Source: a plasmid
Assembly: GCF_054482595.1 (NCBI RefSeq)
Contig: NZ_JBTHVH010000001.1
Length of the DNA: 64,000 nt
Direction: 5' to 3' (one strand)
Position 1 is the first letter of the stretch, and each line of letters begins with the position of its first letter. Positions 7,240-31,734 of this stretch are shown piece by piece. A program made the translations under genes and the position numbers. The notes beneath the pieces are model-generated. The model saw nothing but the letters and a program-made list of their open reading frames with translations. It was not told the DNA's origin and made no database searches.

Positions 7240-7749
7240 TTAATCCCACTCAATCCAGTTGTAAACGATACGAAGTGACGGGCGCACAGCGGCAGTCACA
7301 TCTTCGGTACTAAAGTCGATTGCATCACTGTAGATTTTGCAGTCCAACATTTCAATTGTTGTAGCAGCTTTTGTCACAGCGTTAACCCCGGAAGATTTGG
7401 ATTCAGGGGTCGCAGCCATCGTGATATCAACATAGTCCTTCGCCGCAATGCGATCCTTGATGAACTGAAGAATATCGCCTTCGATAGTCTCCACGCACTG
7501 GACCTGGATTTCCCCAGAGTTTCGAATTGGTCCGTGCTGGTTGAACTTCACACCATTCGGACCATAGTCCTCCACATCCTCGCGGGTCATTTCAGGAATT
7601 TGCGACGTGCGAACCAGTACGCTGATATCTTCATGGCCTGCAAAAGTGAGCTGGAATTCAGAAGATACCAGTCGTTCGCCTTTGGCCGCGTTGGCAGTAT
7701 AGCGGCCCTTAATAAATTTACGGTTTCCCTTAGTGTTATTGTGCCCCAT
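7240..7749 (-). CDS. late virion/tail morphogenesis protein (169 aa)
   Basis: Last gene of the minus-strand late block downstream of the sheath-like gene. Confidence 0.45.
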   Translation of the reverse strand: MGHNNTKGNRKFIKGRYTANAAKGERLVSSEFQLTFAGHEDISVLVRTSQIPEMTREDVEDYGPNGVKFNQHGPIRNSGEIQVQCVETIEGDILQFIKDRIAAKDYVDITMAATPESKSSGVNAVTKAATTIEMLDCKIYSDAIDFSTEDVTAAVRPSLRIVYNWIEWD

Positions 7750-7760
7750 ATAAAATCCTT

Positions 7761-8342
7761 TTACTGGAACGCCCGAACAATATCGGAGCTGTTATATATC
7801 GAAGAACCGGTCAACTGGAGGTTGACGGTGTTTTTCAGGAAATGCCCATTGCTGTCCCTGGGCGCATCGAGATCGAAACTTATGTCCTGGATAGCGACAT
7901 CAATGATGTTGATCCGGCGACCAATGTTTAGCGTCACACGCTCCGGGATTCGACCACCAATACTGGCATCTTTAAGTTCCGGGCTAATCATCGCTGACAA
8001 TGCGGCGATAGCTCCTGAAACCTCCGTGAATGGGTCAAACAAAGCGATGAAAGTTACTGGCAGCGTGAAAGTCGGCGGTGTTCCCCCTTCCCAAACCATT
8101 AAGCTGTTCCAACGGGCAACCGACGTTGTTTCAGTACCAACCTGCGCAAAACCACTGAAGGCACCAGCAACAGATCCCATGGACATACCGGTAAACGGCG
8201 CTTCCCAATTCTGGGCCATGTTCATTGCCGCTCCCTGGCTGATATATCCGGTAACCTGGTACTGAGAGTTCGTTAAAGTAACTTTCAGATATGGCGATAC
8301 ACCGTCAGCCTGGCTGTAAACCCCATAAGGTATAGGTGCCAT
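7761..8342 (-). CDS. late virion/tail morphogenesis protein (193 aa)
   Basis: Tightly packed in the late operon. Confidence 0.45.
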   Translation of the reverse strand: MAPIPYGVYSQADGVSPYLKVTLTNSQYQVTGYISQGAAMNMAQNWEAPFTGMSMGSVAGAFSGFAQVGTETTSVARWNSLMVWEGGTPPTFTLPVTFIALFDPFTEVSGAIAALSAMISPELKDASIGGRIPERVTLNIGRRINIIDVAIQDISFDLDAPRDSNGHFLKNTVNLQLTGSSIYNSSDIVRAFQ

Positions 8343-8377
8343 TCAAGTTAAAGGCCGGAGTTCTCCGGCCTCCTCCT

Positions 8378-9193
8378 TTAGCCAAGGCGCTTACGGCGCA
8401 GTTTCATTGACTTTTTGCGGGCAAGTTTTGCCGCGCCGGTCTGGGCTTTTCGACGCGCTTTTTTCAGCGCCGATTTTTGAGCCGCAGTCAGACGTTTTTT
8501 ACGCAGGCGTTTACGGATGAGTTTGATCTCACCGTTACGAACAACCTTCTTAAATGCTTCAGTCAGCATTTCATCAGAAGTGCCAGCAACAACAAACGCC
8601 GCTTCCAGTTCGTCGCGGTCGTCGCTATCTAAACCAGCGATAGAGGCACCAACATCAGCAGCAGCGTCGTCGTCTTCATCGTCAGCCAGTGCTTCGATCA
8701 GGTCATCATCTACACCGCATGCTGCGAGGAAGTCAGCAACATTTGCCCATGCTTCGTTATAGGCATCGTCCTGTTCTTCTGTAACTTCGGAGTCGTCGTC
8801 ATCAGAGATACCAGCGATAGCCTGAACGAAACCATCAAGGGAGTCGAAAGTCAGATCACCGCTATCAGCCCAGGCGAAAACGGCGTCGGCCGCATCACTC
8901 AACGCATTCTGCATAGCACTTCGATTTGCAGCTTCCAGAATCATCTGGTGCGCCTGTTCGACGGTCCATTCTTTACCGTCTTTCCCTTCCAGGATTTGCT
9001 CAGGAGCCGGGGCAGATGGAACGTTATCGTTAGTCTGTGCCGCCGGTTCCGGATTATTATTAATAACCGGATCTGTTGGCGGTTCGGCGCTTGCTCGGGC
9101 AGACTCCATCAGCTGCACAGGATCAGAGTTCAAAGCGAAACGGGACAGTCCATTCCCCAAAAATGCCCCGGATTGAAAAAAGTTTTTGCTCAT
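8378..9193 (-). CDS. late protein with strongly acidic body and lysine/arginine-rich C-terminal tail (271 aa)
   Basis: Asp/Glu-rich runs followed by a basic C-terminal tail; directly downstream of the sheath-like gene. Confidence 0.45.
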   Translation of the reverse strand: MSKNFFQSGAFLGNGLSRFALNSDPVQLMESARASAEPPTDPVINNNPEPAAQTNDNVPSAPAPEQILEGKDGKEWTVEQAHQMILEAANRSAMQNALSDAADAVFAWADSGDLTFDSLDGFVQAIAGISDDDDSEVTEEQDDAYNEAWANVADFLAACGVDDDLIEALADDEDDDAAADVGASIAGLDSDDRDELEAAFVVAGTSDEMLTEAFKKVVRNGEIKLIRKRLRKKRLTAAQKSALKKARRKAQTGAAKLARKKSMKLRRKRLG

Positions 9194-9202
9194 TGTATTC
9201 CC

Positions 9203-10792
9203 TTACTTAATAAGCAGCGGTACGCCCTGGATACGACGGGCTACGCCAGTCGGGCAGCAGGCCCAGACTACTTCCCATTTATCGAATTCCGCCTGCGTAA
9301 CTTTCAGCACATACGGTTCTGTACCGTCAGCATCAGGATCACGAGGAGCCACCAGAGCGCCGGAGGCGACAAAGCGATCCAAAAGTTTGGTCATCCCTTT
9401 AGTCAGACCAGCGGCAGTAATACCGTCAGGGCTATGCTTCATCTGGCGGGCTAACTGGACAAAGAAACGGCTGATTGCATTCATCAGGGATGGGACGTGC
9501 TGGAAGTGCAGATAGTTATCCTGCGTGCAGCAAGTTAAAGCATCGTCGATGATCATCTGGCCAGAGGTGCCAACAGATACTTTATTGAGGCGGCCCTTAA
9601 CCATTGCTTCTTCGTCCGGGGTATCTTCCGGATACAGCGGTTGAATTGACGCACGAGCAATGACGGCACGTTCTTCACCAGCCGGTGAGTAATGCCAACC
9701 GCCGACATCAGAGTTTTTCTTGACGCCACGAGCTTTCGCCGCATACGCCGCGCCAGACAGACCGAAGACCACACGGGATTGGGTCCATTTGTCTTTGCAG
9801 GAGAACGGGAAGTGATAGACAGAACAGCTTACATAATCGGTACCAAGTAAACCGGTGCCCTCAACAGCTGTTAGTGCTTCTGCGTACCTTAATGTCGGTT
9901 TGACATCAAAGAAGCCATCAATCAGGCGATCAGAACAGATATTACCTAACGCAGTGATCGCCGCATTGTCATAGCACCCCAGGCCGAGAACAGCGGTGTA
10001 CATGTACGGCGCATTGTTCAGCACTTTCACCGCACGCAGGTACGCAGCGGTTGAGATTTTCGACTGATCGCCGTTGGTACCGCCAGTGAACGCCAACGAT
10101 TTTTTGTTTGTTACTTTCGCTGTCGAAATCAGCTCTTCATTAACAACCGCGCGCAGATATTTAGAACGGGCTTCCAGAGCCGTAGGCAGATAACACAAGC
10201 GGCCCATGTCATCTTTCGCTTCTTCCGCCAAAGACACAGTGTGTGTCTCCAGGGTCGTTACCACGCCGAGCGAAGTCGTCTGGGTCAGTTTTAAGAGGAA
10301 GCGTTCATTACCCGCGCTGTCCGCTGTTGCCGTTTCGATGGTTAACTCACGGGTAGGTGAAATACACGGATCACCATCATCAACGTAGATAGCAAAGGCT
10401 TCGCCACTATCAAGTTCAATTTCAGAACCGTATGGCAACGCACTGTAAGCCGGTTCGCCTGATTCATCGAACATAATAATCGGGAACTTCGCATCATCCG
10501 GAACAGCGCGAACAACATAACCAGACGTTTGCTGAATAGCTTCGTATACATGGCGAATTGGTTCGAACTGTGAGCCGGAAGACGGCTTCAGCGGTTCGCC
10601 GAGAACATCTTCGTAATTGGACTCAGTAACCGCAAGAACAGTAAACGGCTTGCCACGCGCAAATACGCCAATACCAGCCCACAAGCTGCTATTTAATGCA
10701 ACACCGGTAGATAACGTCGCATCGGCATTGATCGGGCTAACAGCGACGCCGGATGCATTACCTAATGACTGTTGAATTGAATATTGAGACAT
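9203..10792 (-). CDS. tail sheath-like protein (P1 gp22-like position and size)
   Basis: 529 aa, adjacent to the major-head-like gene in the block next to parS, matching P1 organisation. Confidence 0.5.
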   Translation of the reverse strand: MSQYSIQQSLGNASGVAVSPINADATLSTGVALNSSLWAGIGVFARGKPFTVLAVTESNYEDVLGEPLKPSSGSQFEPIRHVYEAIQQTSGYVVRAVPDDAKFPIIMFDESGEPAYSALPYGSEIELDSGEAFAIYVDDGDPCISPTRELTIETATADSAGNERFLLKLTQTTSLGVVTTLETHTVSLAEEAKDDMGRLCYLPTALEARSKYLRAVVNEELISTAKVTNKKSLAFTGGTNGDQSKISTAAYLRAVKVLNNAPYMYTAVLGLGCYDNAAITALGNICSDRLIDGFFDVKPTLRYAEALTAVEGTGLLGTDYVSCSVYHFPFSCKDKWTQSRVVFGLSGAAYAAKARGVKKNSDVGGWHYSPAGEERAVIARASIQPLYPEDTPDEEAMVKGRLNKVSVGTSGQMIIDDALTCCTQDNYLHFQHVPSLMNAISRFFVQLARQMKHSPDGITAAGLTKGMTKLLDRFVASGALVAPRDPDADGTEPYVLKVTQAEFDKWEVVWACCPTGVARRIQGVPLLIK

Positions 10793-12580: not shown

Positions 12581-12691
12581 GGCACTTGTGTGAATCCCTT
12601 TTCGGAAGAGATTTTATTGAAAGTCACTTGTTGACTTTCTCGTGACAAGCAATTTTTTTATTTTTTTCGGGAGTAGGGGAGGAAGGTAAAA

Positions 12692-15984: not shown

Positions 15985-16240
15985 CCACTGCTTGATGAGA
16001 ACCGCGCAAATGTTGACTATGCGCGATGTGACTACAGTCAAAAGTTGACTGTAGTCGATTTAACTCCACCAAAGATCGACTATGTAAGATATTGTCGGGA
16101 GAAACGTTGACTATACGCGATGAAATGCCCCTAAAAGCCATCTCAATAGCGACTTGCAGAATATTGACGCCAGCAAAAATCCACCAGCGTCAACGAATGT
16201 CGCCTATAGTCAACTTCTCGCTATCGCATATAGTCAATAT
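15985..16240. repeat. incA: incA-like iteron array downstream of repA
   Basis: Multiple copies of the core (C/T)(A/G)TAGTCAA(C/T) in both orientations. Confidence 0.65.
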
Positions 16241-17124
16241 TATGGATTGCGCTTATGGATCTGGAAGCCGATTTTCCTGCCGTTTTTTATCTCTGAAAAT
16301 TTAAGATATTCAATAGCTTCCAAATCTTTCATGGCTTTTCTGATAACGCTATTTTGCACGCTAACGGATGATTTGAGATTAAGCCTCGCTCTAAGGCGCT
16401 CAATGCTGACAGGTGCCGGGTTGGCGGGTAGAGCCTCAAAGAATGTATACAGTACCTTGGCCGTCTCTTTGCGCCCTAGTTTATCCAGCATCTTCAGCTT
16501 CAGGATTCGCTTATAGTCAACATAGTAAAGTTCAGATAGCTGTTTCTGCGGCTGGATCTCGATAACATCAAGCTCGGTATTCAGGCTGCTATATGCCAAC
16601 AAGTTGACGTTAATGTTATTGAGATGACCTTTTGCCGCCGGGAAGCGGAATTTGACAACTGTCTGCTGAATGCGTGTCAGAGAGTCATCAATACTTTTAC
16701 GGAACGCCTTTGAAAGGCGCTTACGTGGATAGCCGCATCGATCGGCAAACTCGGAGAATGGCAGGGTGATTATGCCGTCATCATCAGGTGCGTAGTCAAA
16801 CAACGCGGAGGTTATGCCCACCCACACCTTAAAATCAGTATCCATATCCAGGCGTGGACCATGAATTTCAATTCCCTCATAGCCTTCCTGCTCAACAATT
16901 TTGAGGCTTGATAGTTCTTCAGTTGCGTTCGTTGTGTTTGTTGTAACTGACGATCCGCGACGTAGCGCCACATTGGTAGATTTTAAGGTTGGCACAAACA
17001 CACCTAAGCGCAACAAAGCGATGGGTTGTATAGTGCTGTTGTTATTGGGCTTCAGGCTGTGGATTTCTCCTGTATTTCCTGCAACTTCTTCAACGCTAAG
17101 GAAGCCTTTACTTTCTTCCGGCAT
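16240..17124 (-). CDS. repA: plasmid replication initiator RepA (iteron-binding), divergent from P1 RepA
   Basis: Flanked by iteron arrays; preferred ATG at 17124 with GGAG Shine-Dalgarno (track start 17160); blocks such as GPRLDMDTDFK and PLALLRLGVFVP resemble P1 RepA. Confidence 0.75.
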   Translation of the reverse strand: MPEESKGFLSVEEVAGNTGEIHSLKPNNNSTIQPIALLRLGVFVPTLKSTNVALRRGSSVTTNTTNATEELSSLKIVEQEGYEGIEIHGPRLDMDTDFKVWVGITSALFDYAPDDDGIITLPFSEFADRCGYPRKRLSKAFRKSIDDSLTRIQQTVVKFRFPAAKGHLNNINVNLLAYSSLNTELDVIEIQPQKQLSELYYVDYKRILKLKMLDKLGRKETAKVLYTFFEALPANPAPVSIERLRARLNLKSSVSVQNSVIRKAMKDLEAIEYLKFSEIKNGRKIGFQIHKRNP

Positions 17125-17164
17125 CACGGTTTCTCCATGTGTGGCGCGGCCTGACGTCAATTTG

Positions 17165-17440
17165 GATGGCTGTTATCAACAGCTGTGAATATTCAGACTC
17201 TAAAATCGCTTACAGTCAATGTTTCTGTCGCGTATAGTCAACAATAAATCGCGTGCAGTCAACAATAAATCGTGCACAGTCAACATAAAATCGCGTATAG
17301 TCAATGTTGATCCCATTTCAGGCCAGTAATGACGCGGCTTACAGCGATCCGGGATCTTCTTTGGATCTTCCTAGGTTCTCTTTAGGATCTGTTTATTGGA
17401 TCTATGCTGTGGATAAGTTGAATAAACCGGCCAACAAAGC
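17165..17440. other. oriR-like plasmid origin: five direct iterons, five GATC-containing heptamers, DnaA box
   Basis: Five repeats of AAATCG(C/T)G(T/C)A(T/C)AGTCAA 17195-17310; GATC sites 17345-17395; TGTGGATAA at 17411-17419. Confidence 0.7.
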
Positions 17441-17459: not shown

Positions 17460-17852
17460 TTATTCTACGCTTTCGATAAGAAGACCATGTTCATAACATT
17501 TAAGCTCATCGCCTTCGTACAGGAATTGGTATCCAATACCACCATTTTCATGGACATTAGGGAATAACTCATAACTCACTGAAGAGCAAATCACACCAAT
17601 GCAACGATCAACGCCTTCTCGTTCTTCAGTGCTGAAAAAATCCTCTTCGGTAAGAACATGAGTACATTGCTCATCAGCATAGGTCGGAAATACATGCTCG
17701 ATGCAATCCGGGTGTTTTAAACCAAGCTGATCGGCAAGCTCGAAAGCATGACGGTATTGTTCAGATCCTGGCTTGCCAACAGTGATGTGCTCAATTTTGT
17801 AGATTGAAGTCGCTTTGTTGATAGTTTGCTTTACTGTTACTTTATCAGACAT
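17460..17852 (-). CDS. hypothetical protein (130 aa)
   Basis: ORF immediately after oriR. Confidence 0.45.
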   Translation of the reverse strand: MSDKVTVKQTINKATSIYKIEHITVGKPGSEQYRHAFELADQLGLKHPDCIEHVFPTYADEQCTHVLTEEDFFSTEEREGVDRCIGVICSSVSYELFPNVHENGGIGYQFLYEGDELKCYEHGLLIESVE

Positions 17853-17863
17853 AAAAATCCCTT

Positions 17864-18115
17864 TTAGTTACCGCTGATAGCGCGGTTGTAATCATTAACG
17901 TTGCGATTCTTCCTGTTAATCCCCATCAGCATCGTTTCTGTATCGAGGATATACGCTGGCAGATCATCAAAATATTCACTGCTAAACTCTGGCATCCTGC
18001 ACATAAATGCACTTTTTGGGGCAGGGTGGTTAACCTTTGTCGGCGTCGGCGTTAAATTCGCTGATCGACTCCCGGAGCAACCGCTGAGTGTCAGCAGGAA
18101 TACGCTGGCGAACAT
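17864..18115 (-). CDS. outer-membrane lipoprotein, o-spanin-like (proline-rich after lipobox); start overlaps the upstream gene
   Basis: MFASVFLLTLSGC lipobox then Pro-rich segment; start lies inside the 3' end of the 18030-18452 gene in another frame. Confidence 0.5.
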   Translation of the reverse strand: MFASVFLLTLSGCSGSRSANLTPTPTKVNHPAPKSAFMCRMPEFSSEYFDDLPAYILDTETMLMGINRKNRNVNDYNRAISGN

Positions 18116-18452
18116 TACCCGCCGCAACCAGTTGTTTCTGAACTTCAGCTTTTCGTTCCATTTGCCTGTCAGCATATTTGGCTTGTTCTGATTCATTTTT
18201 CACTTCCTGGCTGTGAAAATGTTGCTCTGCTTTGTTCATCGTCTCAATGGTCTGGTTAAGATCCATTATTGACTTATCACGTTCCTTAACAGCCTGATCA
18301 AGACTGCCAATTTTCTCGATGGCTTGCTTTAGCTGATGACGTTCCCATGCAAACCCAGCACCAACAAGTGCGCAAATCAGAACAAGAACACCAGTAGCAG
18401 CAAGTTTCTCCTTCAAAGACAAAGCTGTTTTTAACGTAGAAAAGAATGACAT
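18030..18452 (-). CDS. i-spanin-like protein (N-terminal transmembrane helix plus periplasmic coiled coil)
   Basis: ATG at 18452 with AGGAGG Shine-Dalgarno; TM segment LAATGVLVLICALVGAGFAW. Confidence 0.5.
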   Translation of the reverse strand: MSFFSTLKTALSLKEKLAATGVLVLICALVGAGFAWERHQLKQAIEKIGSLDQAVKERDKSIMDLNQTIETMNKAEQHFHSQEVKNESEQAKYADRQMERKAEVQKQLVAAGNVRQRIPADTQRLLRESISEFNADADKG

Positions 18453-18491
18453 GTCTTCCTCCTGAAGAAAAATTATCAATGAAGTCCTTTG

Positions 18492-19280
18492 TTACTGTGC
18501 CGCTTTGTTTAATTCATCAAGAACAGAATCAGGAACCAAAGCAGCAACTGCGCTGGCTGTGCTGGCCTTATTTGCTGATGCTTCCGCAAGCGCAGTACCG
18601 ATAGCATGGTTATAAGCAGTTATGGCTACATTGGCGCTTTCATTCGCTCGTTCATACTGCTGTTGTAACGCAGTTGTGGGTGCTGTTGTCTGGTTGAAAA
18701 CAACCCCAAACTGTTCAGTTGCTACTTTCAGAGATTCAATTTGCTCTTCTGTTAGTGCTGGTGGGGGAGTGGCAGTGCCGCCGCCTGAACCAGAGCCTGA
18801 CGAGCTTCCTGAGCCAGTGTTAAGGGTCTGGTTAATCTCCCCCATAGCAGCGACTAAACTTGATGTATTAAGCGCGTTTACAGCGTCCTCAAGCGATTTA
18901 GTAATAGTCACATCACCAATGGCAATAGAGATCGGCAGTTCTGAAACTTCTCGCTCATTAGCACGACAGTAAACATCCCAACCAATATCGAGTTGAAGGA
19001 GCATTGACAGATCAGCATAACCAGCCAACAGGTCCGCGTGCTTAGTTGCCAGTTCTCCAATGTTCGTTAAGCCGGTTGTGGTTGTTCTGATCGTTGAAAC
19101 ATAGCTGGTAATAGTGTCGGGATAGACAATTGTATCCAGAATTAATCCGGTCAATTCTTCTGCAAGCAGTTTTGCTGTGTTAGCACTGTTTCGTGCCGAT
19201 GTTATGGCACCAGGTGTTTTCATCCCACCGGCGGCGGCCAATTTTTTATATGCGGATAACTGGTAGTCTTTTTCCAGCAT
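18492..19280 (-). CDS. hypothetical protein with Gly/Ser-rich linker
   Basis: ATG at 19280 with AGGAG Shine-Dalgarno (track start 19337 would overlap the upstream gene). Confidence 0.45.
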   Translation of the reverse strand: MLEKDYQLSAYKKLAAAGGMKTPGAITSARNSANTAKLLAEELTGLILDTIVYPDTITSYVSTIRTTTTGLTNIGELATKHADLLAGYADLSMLLQLDIGWDVYCRANEREVSELPISIAIGDVTITKSLEDAVNALNTSSLVAAMGEINQTLNTGSGSSSGSGSGGGTATPPPALTEEQIESLKVATEQFGVVFNQTTAPTTALQQQYERANESANVAITAYNHAIGTALAEASANKASTASAVAALVPDSVLDELNKAAQ

Positions 19281-19288
19281 GATATCTC

Positions 19289-19573
19289 CTAACTTACCTG
19301 AACCAGGCCGTCTCCGGACGCTACGGTAGATCCGCATGAAACAGGGTCACCAACGCATACGATCCCTTTACCATTGACGGTAAACCATGCCCTGGTTGAT
19401 ATAGCTTGCCCACCGTGCGTACTGTTTCCATCGGTATGCTGTGCATATTGCTTACCATCAACTAACACTTCGACTCCGTTGACTTTAAGTAGTGCTTCAC
19501 TCTCTACAGGAGGCCTGGATGGGAATCCTCCGTGCCCCGAACAAATGCTGTCTTTTGTTGCAATACTTGCCAC
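19289..19573 (-). CDS. small PAAR-like protein (candidate spike-tip)
   Basis: 94 aa with repeated Gly-His-Gly-Gly and Cys-containing motifs. Confidence 0.35.
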   Translation of the reverse strand: MASIATKDSICSGHGGFPSRPPVESEALLKVNGVEVLVDGKQYAQHTDGNSTHGGQAISTRAWFTVNGKGIVCVGDPVSCGSTVASGDGLVQVS

Positions 19574-19654
19574 GTTATCACCAATTATTTGCTCTGATTT
19601 TCGTTATTTTAACTCAGGTTGTTTGTGGTCTACATGGAGTTCAACTATTGCAAA

Positions 19655-19672
19655 ATTGCTCTAATAAATATT
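19655..19672 (+). promoter_or_regulatory. C1 operator-like site
   Basis: ATTGCTCTAATAAATATT. Confidence 0.6.
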
Positions 19673-19742
19673 GTTTTTTATGTCGTATTTTCGGTACCAT
19701 TCAGCCATCGCCCTTCAATGGGCATTTGTTTGGAGTCGTCAG

Positions 19743-20027
19743 ATGCAGATGGAGCTAATAAGCCGCAAAGAGTTCGATAGCCGTGTAACCAGCGGTGAAC
19801 TCGACAACTTGCAGGCTATCAAGGTGAAAGAAGGCTTTTGCCTCATTGGGAATCAGAGCGGAACAAATCGCGTTTTTATGCTTCGCCGTACGGATTTGAA
19901 GCCATTTGTCTGGAAGAACGAAATTGGTCCCAGCTCATACGCTCAAACGAGGGGGTGCCACAACCTGGCCTTTTTCTACAAAGACGAGCTTTCTGTGGTT
20001 GATATTCAAGGGTTACAACATGTTTAA
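19743..20027 (+). CDS. small protein upstream of hrdC
   Basis: ATG at 19743 with GGAG Shine-Dalgarno; stop overlaps the hrdC start. Confidence 0.4.
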
Positions 20028-20925
20028 GCACTGGAAAAACATTACTATTTATAAACTTTCTCGTGAGGCGGATCTGACCGACTTAGAAGATAAAAAGAAA
20101 ATGATCCTTTTCACACCATGCGGTAGTCAGGATATGGCCAAGTTCGGTTTTGTATCTCCATTTGGTGATAATTCCGAAGTTATCGCTATGCATGGAAATG
20201 GTTTTATCCTTGTTGAAGCAAAGCGCGAAACAAAAATTCTTCCCCCGCCGGTTATCCAGCGAGCTATTCAAGAAAAAATTGAAAAACTTGAGCAAGAACA
20301 AGCGCGTAAACTGAAGAAAACAGAGAAGGACTCCCTGAAAGACGAAGTTCTGCATTCTCTTCTGCCACGGGCTTTTTCAAAGTTTTCTGTTATCCAGGCG
20401 ATCTACGACGGTTCAACTAAACGTATCTATATCAATGCCAGCGCGCGGCAGGCAGAGGATATGCTCGCGCTTATGCGTAAGTCTCTGGGTTCTCTTCCTG
20501 TTGTTCCCCTGAGTGTTGAAAATCCCATTGAATTAACGCTGACCGACTGGGTACGTGATGGTAGTGCTCCACAGGGATTTCAAATGGGGGATGCGGCAGA
20601 ACTTAAGGCAGTGCTTGAGGATGGCGGTATTGCCCGAGTGAAAAAGCAGGATTTGGGAAGCGATGAAATTTCCACACACCTGGAAGCTGGCAAGCTCGTT
20701 ACTAAGTTGGCACTCGACTGGCAGAACCGCATTAAATTTACACTGGACCATAACTTCAGCCTTACCAGCGTCAAATTTGCGGATGAATTGCTTGAGCAGA
20801 ACTCTGATATTGATAGTGAAGATGTTGCGCAGCGACTGGACGCAGATTTCTTCCTGTTGACCAGTGAAATTTCGTGCCTGGTTGATGCTCTGGTAAATGC
20901 CCTTGGTGGAGAGGCTAAGCAGTGA
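20020..20925 (+). CDS. hrdC: RdgC-like recombination-associated protein
   Basis: 302 aa starting [16 protein letters not shown], resembling the RdgC N-terminus. Confidence 0.7.
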
Positions 20926-23186
20926 AAGAGCTGTGCTATGGATCTGTTTGCAGTGGAATTGAAGCCGCGAGTATTGCCTGGGAACCGTTGGGTATGCGTC
21001 CGGCGTGGTTTGCTGAAATCGAGCCTTTTCCATCTGCCGTTCTTGCGCACCGCTGGCCCCATGTCGCCAACCTTGGCGACATGACAAAACTTGCCAAAAA
21101 AGTCCTGGCTGAGGAAATCGAATCCCCTGATGTGCTCGTCGGGGGTACGCCTTGTCAGGCATTCAGTATCGCGGGCTTACGTGGTGGGCTTGATGATGAA
21201 CGCGGCGCGCTAACTTTGAAGTATGTGGAGCTTGCAAATGCAATTGACGACAAACGGTCTGAGTCCTTCCTCAAACCGACAGTTATCGTCTGGGAAAATG
21301 TCCCAGGAGTCCTGTCATCGGCAGATAACGCCTTCGGATGTTTCCTTGCCGGATTGGCTGGAGAAGATGCGCCATTCGAACCAGGTGATCGACCTGAATC
21401 AGGAAAAAGTAACTCGTTCTGGCGGTGGGATGTCAAAACCGGTTGCCATGCTCCAAAGTGGCCGCAGTGTGGTTGTATTTATGGACCGCAGCGAAAGGTG
21501 GCCTGGAGAATCCTTGATGCCCAATACTTCGGAGTGGCACAACGACGCCGACGCGTGTTTGTTGTCGCAAGTGCTCGAACAGACCTCGATCCCGCAACGG
21601 TACTTTTTGAGTTCGAAGGCGTGCGCCGGAATATTGCGCCGAGCCGAAAAAAGAAGGAAATCGCTTCCGCCATTATTGCAAATGGCGCTGCAATCAGTGG
21701 CGAAAGCCTAAATCCATGCCTACACGCTGACATGCCACCCGGTATGAAATCGACGAAAGCCGTAAACGCTTTCAGGATGGCAGCATTTGGGGAATATATT
21801 GACGATGAAACCGCATCGACAGTAAAGGCAAGAGATTTTAAAGATGCCACTGACCTTGCCGTTTTTAGCAGCACAGGAGCAGGTTTTTGGTCAGAAGGGC
21901 ATGGTACATTGCGGGCACGTGAGCAAGAAAGCCATGAGCATCTTGTTACATTGGCTTTTCCTGAGCGTATGAGCGGTACACAACATGCTGCAACTAAGAA
22001 TACTTCACCATCTCTAATGGCTAAAAATCCAACAGCTGTTTGCTATGAAGTAAGAAACGCAGAAGTAGCTGTCCGCCGTCTTACCCCTGTCGAATGTGAA
22101 AGGCTGCAAGGTTTTCCTGATGGGCATACGTTGATCCCGACGGAAAAGCGTAAAAAAGTTAATTCAGATGAACTGGCATATCTTCGCAATCACTATCCAG
22201 ATTTAAGCGAAGAAGAGGCCGCGATGCTTGCAGCTGACGGACCGCGTTACAAAGCGATCGGCAATAGTATGGCAATACCAGTAATGCGCTGGATTGGCGA
22301 TCGGATTACTAAGGCCGTATGTCGGCAGAAAGAAGGAAGTGAAACAAAAGAGCGAAAAGTTAAACCAGCGGCAGAATTCGAACGGTCCATATTCAAATGG
22401 GCTGGTGGAAAATTTGGTGTTCTGGAACAAATCTTTCGCTATTTGCCAGAAGGGAAGCGCCTGATTGAACCTTTCGTTGGTGGCGGAGCTGTCTTCATGA
22501 ATGCCGGATACCAGGAAAATCTGCTAAATGATGTGAATGCTGACCTGATTAACTTTTACAAGACTCTGCAACGCGAGGCGAATTCACTTATCACTCTGGC
22601 ACATCGTTTCTTCCAGGACTACAACACACAGGAAGGATACCTGGCAGTACGGAATGCGTTTAACAAACAAGTCTATGATGATTTACATCGCGCAGCGGCG
22701 TTTTTGTTCCTGAACCGACATTGTTTTAACGGATTGACGCGTTACAACCAGGCCGGTGAGTTCAATGTCGGTTATGGGAAGTATAAAACTCCGTATTTCC
22801 CATTACAGGAGATGGAAGCCTTCCTCGGTGCGGAAGGGCGGTCTGAGTTTGTATGCGGTGATTTTGCAGCGGTGATTGAAGCTGCCGGAGAAGGAGATGT
22901 TATCTTTTGCGATCCGCCGTATGAACCGCTTCCAAATACAGAGGGATTCACGAACTATTCCGGTCATGACTTTAAGTTTGAAGAGCAAAAACGCCTGGTG
23001 TCTCTGTTGACGGATGCTCATCGTCGAGGTGCAAAGGTTCTCATTACTAACAGTGGCGCGCCAAACATCAGAGAGCTTTATCATGACAGTGGCTTCAGAG
23101 TGGAACCTCTTTTTGCCAGACGTTCTGTGTCTTGTAAGGGGGACACTCGAGGTGTAGCTCATGACGTTTTGGGCATATTGCTCTAA
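20922..23186 (+). CDS. dmt: fused DNA methyltransferase: N-terminal C5-cytosine MTase-like, C-terminal Dam-like N6-adenine MTase
   Basis: 754 aa; [11 protein letters not shown] and ENVPG motifs, then KWAGGK and DPPY motifs. Confidence 0.8.

Positions 23187-28587: not shown

Positions 28588-28590
<3 letters not shown>
28563..28590. terminator. bidirectional rho-independent terminator between convergent genes
   Basis: AAAGCCCG-AACG-CCGGGCTTT with flanking T/A runs. Confidence 0.6.

Positions 28591-31734
<3,144 letters not shown>

Follow-up and report, generated by a model that had tools for sequence, protein, structure and literature searches.

The gene at positions 19289..19573 of the stretch of DNA analysed here (64,000 nucleotides, referred to as the window) is, with a probability of roughly 96%, upfC of a P1-like phage-plasmid, encoding a PAAR-repeat tip that caps the gp5 spike with a metal-held apex. 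Gene identity, homology, fold and the conserved ligand residues are established by the present analysis. The position of the protein in the virion and its dispensability are established in the literature and not from the present sequence, and we infer the bound metal, a role in fitness and the anchoring of UpfB by analogy with gp5.4 of phage T4. The features referred to throughout are as follows.

19289..19573, minus strand: upfC, 94-aa PAAR-like spike-tip protein, GTG start, TAG stop
19281..19291, minus strand: junction of the upfC stop and the upfB ribosome-binding site, TAG-GAGATATC-ATG, read from the sequence
18492..19280, minus strand: upfB, 262-aa all-helical protein directly downstream of upfC, reported as a 'tripod'
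28588..29220, minus strand: gene 5, 210-aa trimeric spike, PHROG_430 at E 1.3e-51
29213..30229, minus strand: gene 6, baseplate hub carrying the gp5 spike, PHROG_1390 tail protein at E 1.8e-158

The open reading frame lies where the initial annotation had placed it, on the minus strand and with a length of 94 aa. Its product is identical to UpfC of phage P1 (YP_006534; PDB 9VYI chain A) at 92 of 94 residues (98%), the only two substitutions relative to P1 being A27 for P and S86 for A, both at positions that are variable in the family. The GTG-started product has the same length as P1 UpfC and the same N-terminus, MASIATK. Judged from its sequence, the frame is not a chance ORF, given the identity to P1 UpfC, the match to a PDB chain and the existence of a conserved family; two opposite-strand ORFs that overlap it are spurious and have no family matches. 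The window belongs to a P1-like phage-plasmid (Punavirus). Over the 4 kb surrounding upfC, DNA identity to P1, P7, RCS47 and related records is 96-98.5%, and the genes are arranged as in P1: parB, parA, repA, the oriR iterons, upfA, mlp/ppfA, upfB and upfC, with the synteny from repA to upfC being the same as in P1. Beyond the minus-strand upfC follows the divergent uhr-hrdC-dmt operon, again as in P1. Window coordinates correspond to P1 coordinates (NC_005856) minus approximately 45,485.

The initial annotation had noted a resemblance to PAAR repeats and suggested that the protein could be a spike tip, and both points are borne out by profile matches, by matches in the PDB and by the fold. 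An HMM search returned the Pfam family PAAR_motif (PF05488) at E 7.6e-6, although the score of 26.5 bits lies 0.5 bit under the gathering score of 27.0 and the match covers residues 51-91 only. Apart from a chance DUF2396 match, PAAR_motif was the only Pfam family found in UpfC at E<=10, and precomputed PF05488 matches are present in most UpfC homologues. Residues 1-93 are matched by the PHROG_281 profile 'PAAR motif' at E 3.7e-30. UpfC lacks the literal P-A-A-R tetrapeptide, the positions in question being occupied by VLVD and IVCV. Searching the PDB by phmmer recovered P1 'UpfC' itself (9VYI_A, E 2e-59), followed by a baseplate chain of Klebsiella phage KP1 (9F4B_BA, E 2.4e-10), T4 gp5.4 (E 4.6e-8) and the Vibrio cholerae type VI secretion system (T6SS) PAAR protein VCA0105 (E 6.3e-5). 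An AlphaFold2 model of UpfC based on 25 homologues consists of strands only and is predicted to be all-beta with a mean pLDDT of 96.2. Foldseek comparison of this model with the corresponding chain of the cryo-EM structure of the P1 baseplate (9VYI) gave a TM-score of 0.95 and an rmsd of 0.7 Å. Matches with a probability of 1.00 were obtained to T4 gp5.4 (4KU0_D, TM 0.91), VCA0105 (4JIV_D, TM 0.88) and Escherichia coli c1882 (4JIW_D, TM 0.91), followed by phiKZ gp163.1 (6P1Z_D, TM 0.66); matches weaker than the latter are noise.

The repeated Gly-His-Gly-Gly and Cys motifs from which the PAAR resemblance was originally deduced were roughly rightly described, but the exact tetrapeptide occurs only once. 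UpfC contains G-H-G-G at residues 13-16, T-H-G-G at 52-55, a third histidine at position 46 and cysteines at positions 11, 73 and 80. No variation is seen at H14, H46, H53 and C80 among 25 homologues sharing 40-83% identity with UpfC, and C11 and C73 are variable in the same set. In pairwise alignments, the four invariant residues align with His and Cys residues of T4 gp5.4. The metal site of gp5.4 is formed by three histidines and one cysteine and binds Fe, and its H14A mutant loses the ability to bind the spike (PMC12407873). UpfC has the 3-His/1-Cys ligand residues of the tetrahedral metal site close to the apex of PAAR tips, as read from these alignments, and the metal itself is predicted.

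The gene could alternatively encode a bacterial T6SS-type PAAR protein or 'moron' cargo of the phage-plasmid that works inside the host cell, for instance on the host's VgrG spike or as a membrane protein, and not in the virion. This reading, to which we give very little credence, is prompted by database labels and by genomic position. PHROG_281 falls into the category 'moron, auxiliary metabolic gene and host takeover' and carries the description 'PAAR motif of membran proteins', JGI labels homologues as 'Zn-binding protein involved in type VI secretion', and the neighbors of upfC are plasmid-maintenance and accessory genes rather than a tail block. Against it, cryo-EM places UpfC on the P1 spike, and the nearest solved relatives after P1 are the phage spike tips of KP1 and T4, which precede the T6SS PAAR proteins. 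Neither Pfam, PHROG nor structural alignment revealed the extension or toxin domain of effector-carrying ('evolved') T6SS PAAR proteins in UpfC; all 94 aa represent PAAR core, with the PHROG match spanning residues 1-93 and structural alignments covering 92-97 columns. The family, whose members share 40-98% identity and are found in many Enterobacteriaceae elements, consists mostly of proteins of about 94 aa, many of them encoded on phage-plasmid-sized contigs of 80-100 kb. Further, a distant homologue with 43% identity is located inside a P2-like baseplate cluster, between a gpV-like spike gene and the gpW/J/I baseplate genes.

The partner spike of UpfC is encoded by gene 5. In addition to its PHROG match, the gene 5 product contains the Pfam domain Phage_base_V (OB domain, E 1.1e-4) and matches 'Gp5' in the PDB (9VZK_q) at E 1.6e-136. 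gp5 combines an OB fold with a beta-helix, has no lysozyme domain and is capped by UpfC at its blunt end. An HxH motif was not found near the C-terminus of gp5, and a separate tip protein is therefore to be expected. The adjacent gene 6 product is the hub (PMC9024508, PMC12810830). The initial annotation had described upfC as lying next to the origin and away from the main tail block, which agrees with the map of the window. The oriR/incC iterons, spaced at 21 bp, are located at 17201-17325, about 1.85 kb from upfC. The tube gene, pmgG, gene 21 and the sheath gene occupy 7240-10792, about 8.5 kb away, and the spike gene 5, hub gene 6 and genes 24, 7 and 25 occupy 28588-32952, with gene 5 about 9 kb from upfC. 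In 83-kb P1-like elements of the Serratia type (L006/L007), the order upfC-upfB-spanin is kept and a gp5-like gene lies 7 kb upstream of the upfC homologue. A 226-aa ORF of the same elements (7321-8001) was considered as a gp5-like spike and rejected, as BLASTP returned no similarity and there was no PHROG match. This ORF abuts the upstream side of the upfC homologue and has no counterpart there in the window.

The presence of UpfC in virions, which the initial annotation had implied, is documented for P1. UpfC has been built into a cryo-EM map of the P1 baseplate, where a monomer caps the trimeric gp5 spike (PDB 9VYI)(PMC12810830). The same placement was reported in an independent preprint, in which an unrefined AlphaFold2 prediction, superimposed on the map, serves as the spike-tip model (bioRxiv 2025.07.21.665459).

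A second alternative regards upfC as a dispensable remnant of evolution: the PAAR-fold gene would be kept by linkage, and its product would be not incorporated or not functional in most particles. Deletion of P1 upfC leaves plaques normal (PMC9024508), and CRISPRi knock-down results in an efficiency of plating (EOP) of 1.1 (PMC10695390). UpfC also went undetected in LC-MS/MS analysis of purified P1 virions, an observation that speaks against the spike-tip reading as well and that the authors attribute to its being one small copy per virion (PMC9024508). In addition, the region upstream of upfC contains no recognisable late promoter of the Lpa type. The annotated LP23 and LP26/LPpmgL, three sites only, yielded a pattern for such promoters, AAGTNACTT-N4-TANNNT. 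It recovers LP23 (12611-12629) and LP26 (33369-33387) and has no match with up to 2 mismatches in 17825-22156; given that it is built on only three sites, this negative result is weak. A sigma-70 scan upstream of upfC yielded only a weak TTAAAA-17-AATAAT at 19612..19584, the number of sigma-70 hits around the gene is no higher than in shuffled sequence, and the P1 record annotates no upfC promoter. What speaks against a leftover, which we consider highly improbable, is the strict conservation of the metal ligands in a family that spans 40-98% identity across many Enterobacteriaceae elements, together with two independent maps in which density was modelled as UpfC. Further, the T4 counterpart is likewise called 'non-essential' and yet matters: gp5.4 is not required for assembly but is necessary for fitness and for infecting LPS mutants of the deep-rough type. 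Finally, upfC DNA is present at >=90% identity in 575 of 5,426 complete E. coli genomes, about one in ten, and 567 of its 579 places in these genomes are on plasmids.

UpfC belongs to the PAAR-repeat spike-tip proteins and is closest in kind to T4 gp5.4 (4KU0_D, 5IV5). The two proteins are of similar size (94 and 97 aa), share the conical PAAR-repeat fold and have three His and one Cys ligands that align. In each case a monomer, the product of a separate small gene, sits on a trimeric gp5 beta-helix and is dispensable for plaques. They differ in that sequence identity is only about 27-31%, and T4 gp5 has a lysozyme domain that P1 gp5 lacks. The gp5.4 gene is located in the segC-gp6 intergenic region according to its PDB molecule name, near baseplate genes, whereas about 9 kb separate upfC from gene 5. 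Unlike T4, P1 is reported to carry an additional UpfB tripod on its tip (PMC12810830), and both the metal and a conditional phenotype have been demonstrated for T4 gp5.4 only. The T6SS PAAR proteins VCA0105 and c1882 resemble UpfC in fold (TM 0.88-0.91) and, for VCA0105, in sequence (E 6e-5), and they likewise cap a beta-helix of the VgrG/gp5 type; in contrast to them, UpfC is a phage virion part with no effector extension, has degenerate PAAR tetrapeptides and is just sub-threshold in Pfam. Spikes of the P2 gpV type also end the central spike in a metal-stabilised sharp point. There, however, the apex is an iron-loaded HxH motif inside the trimeric spike polypeptide, whereas the apex in P1 is a separate monomeric protein.

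UpfC is thus best explained as a cone-shaped PAAR-repeat protein of 94 residues, all-beta in fold. At the baseplate centre, a single copy sits where the beta-helical spike formed by the gp5 trimer ends distally in a flat face. In analogy to T4 gp5.4, H14, H46, H53 and C80 would hold a buried metal ion that joins the tips of the hairpins and gives a rigid sharp apex. Upon sheath contraction, the assembly of tube, hub, spike and tip is expected to cross the outer membrane, after which the spike complex including the tip would be shed. UpfC may in this way sharpen the spike and aid envelope penetration, although published reports describe no phenotype for P1 upfC mutants. It is not required for particle assembly or for plaques on standard laboratory hosts. 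Again by analogy, it probably anchors the UpfB 'tripod' around the tip.

UpfB is encoded directly downstream of upfC, and its start in the P1 record (ATG at 19337, 281 aa) is probably placed 57 nt too far upstream, judging from the following sequence features. The annotated start results in a 49-nt overlap with upfC. The ATG at 19280 is preceded, at a distance of 5 nt, by a TAGGAG Shine-Dalgarno sequence overlapping the upfC stop, and the full PHROG_1559 profile corresponds to residues 20-281 of the long form. In the Serratia-type elements, M1 of the UpfB homologue aligns with M20 of the long form, and an in-frame stop is located 8 codons upstream of the homologue's ATG. Full-length UpfB homologues (>=93% query coverage) are mostly 240-262 aa long. 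In L006/L007, upfC and upfB overlap as TGATG behind GGAGG. Taken together with the arrangement of the upfC stop and upfB start in the window, this overlap in a relative suggests that tip and tripod are translationally coupled.

The assignment of UpfB as a tripod goes back to an AlphaFold3 model fitted into medium-resolution density (PMC12810830). The model predicted here is an elongated all-alpha helical bundle (pLDDT 87) in which residues 158-169 form a putatively disordered Gly/Ser-rich linker. UpfB has no Pfam domain and no sequence match in the PDB, and Foldseek returned no significant fold relative, the best match having an E-value of 0.011 at TM 0.16. ClyA/SmhA pore toxins were considered as relatives and dismissed, as matches at E about 1 and TM <0.2 are generic helical-bundle noise. 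UpfB homologues among the matches listed are from Enterobacteriaceae (Escherichia, Salmonella, Enterobacter, Citrobacter), typically on contigs of about 90 kb. The order upfC-upfB is the same in distant P1-like elements. We tentatively consider, as a possibility that is less probable than its opposite, that UpfC is more than a sharpener and also serves as a docking adaptor for UpfB. If so, the pair would be a phage counterpart of the T6SS arrangement in which a PAAR protein carries cargo. It might then be conditionally required for certain cell envelopes, as is T4 gp5.4 on deep-rough hosts, and could add to the broad host range of P1.

The spike-tip role of UpfC is already known, and there is nothing new in the finding as such. 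The P1 reference record annotates UpfC as having 31% identity to T4 ORF5.4, and the RCS47 record names it 'UpfC (PAAR motif)'. The role as spike tip was proposed in 2022 from an HHpred assignment, the authors of the T4 gp5.4 study highlighted a BLAST link to UpfC, and cryo-EM baseplate models containing UpfC date from 2025-2026. The practical value of the present analysis lies in annotation hygiene, with upfC going uncalled, being misnamed 'alanine racemase' or being filed as a host-takeover moron. Five of the six best RefSeq matches to upfC have no feature annotated at its position, which indicates that the GTG-started gene is often not called. Homologues in NCBI and UniRef are widely named 'alanine racemase' (P0006, P0009, P0012, P0013, P0015, P0026, P0036 and P0042). 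Alanine racemase is a PLP-dependent enzyme of about 360 aa; UpfC has 94 aa and the Pfam scan detected no racemase domain, so that the name is an annotation error. Both this name and the host-takeover label of PHROG_281 are misleading for a virion spike tip.

A number of further features of the window were observed. The upfC/uhr intergenic region contains a C1-operator-like site, ATTGCTCTAATAAATAT, at 19655-19671, corresponding to Op68/Odmt of P1. On the minus strand at 17864-18479, ppfA and the embedded mlp match the Rz-like and Rz1-like spanin families PHROG_89 and PHROG_30284, which points to a lysis spanin pair directly downstream of upfB and before oriR. The mechanically called repA ORF (16240-17160, minus strand) has 306 aa from a TTG start, compared with the 286-aa RepA annotated in P1, and is flanked, as in P1, by incA iterons (about 16008-16238) and by the incC/oriR iterons. 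A loxP-like site with inverted ATAACTTCGTATA arms at 55474-55511 surfaced as chance matches to the late-promoter pattern. Just downstream of it lies a 343-aa ORF (55928-56959) with the size and position of cre. The loxP-like site and the cre-sized ORF indicate that the window continues past the point where the linear P1 record ends and takes in its beginning.
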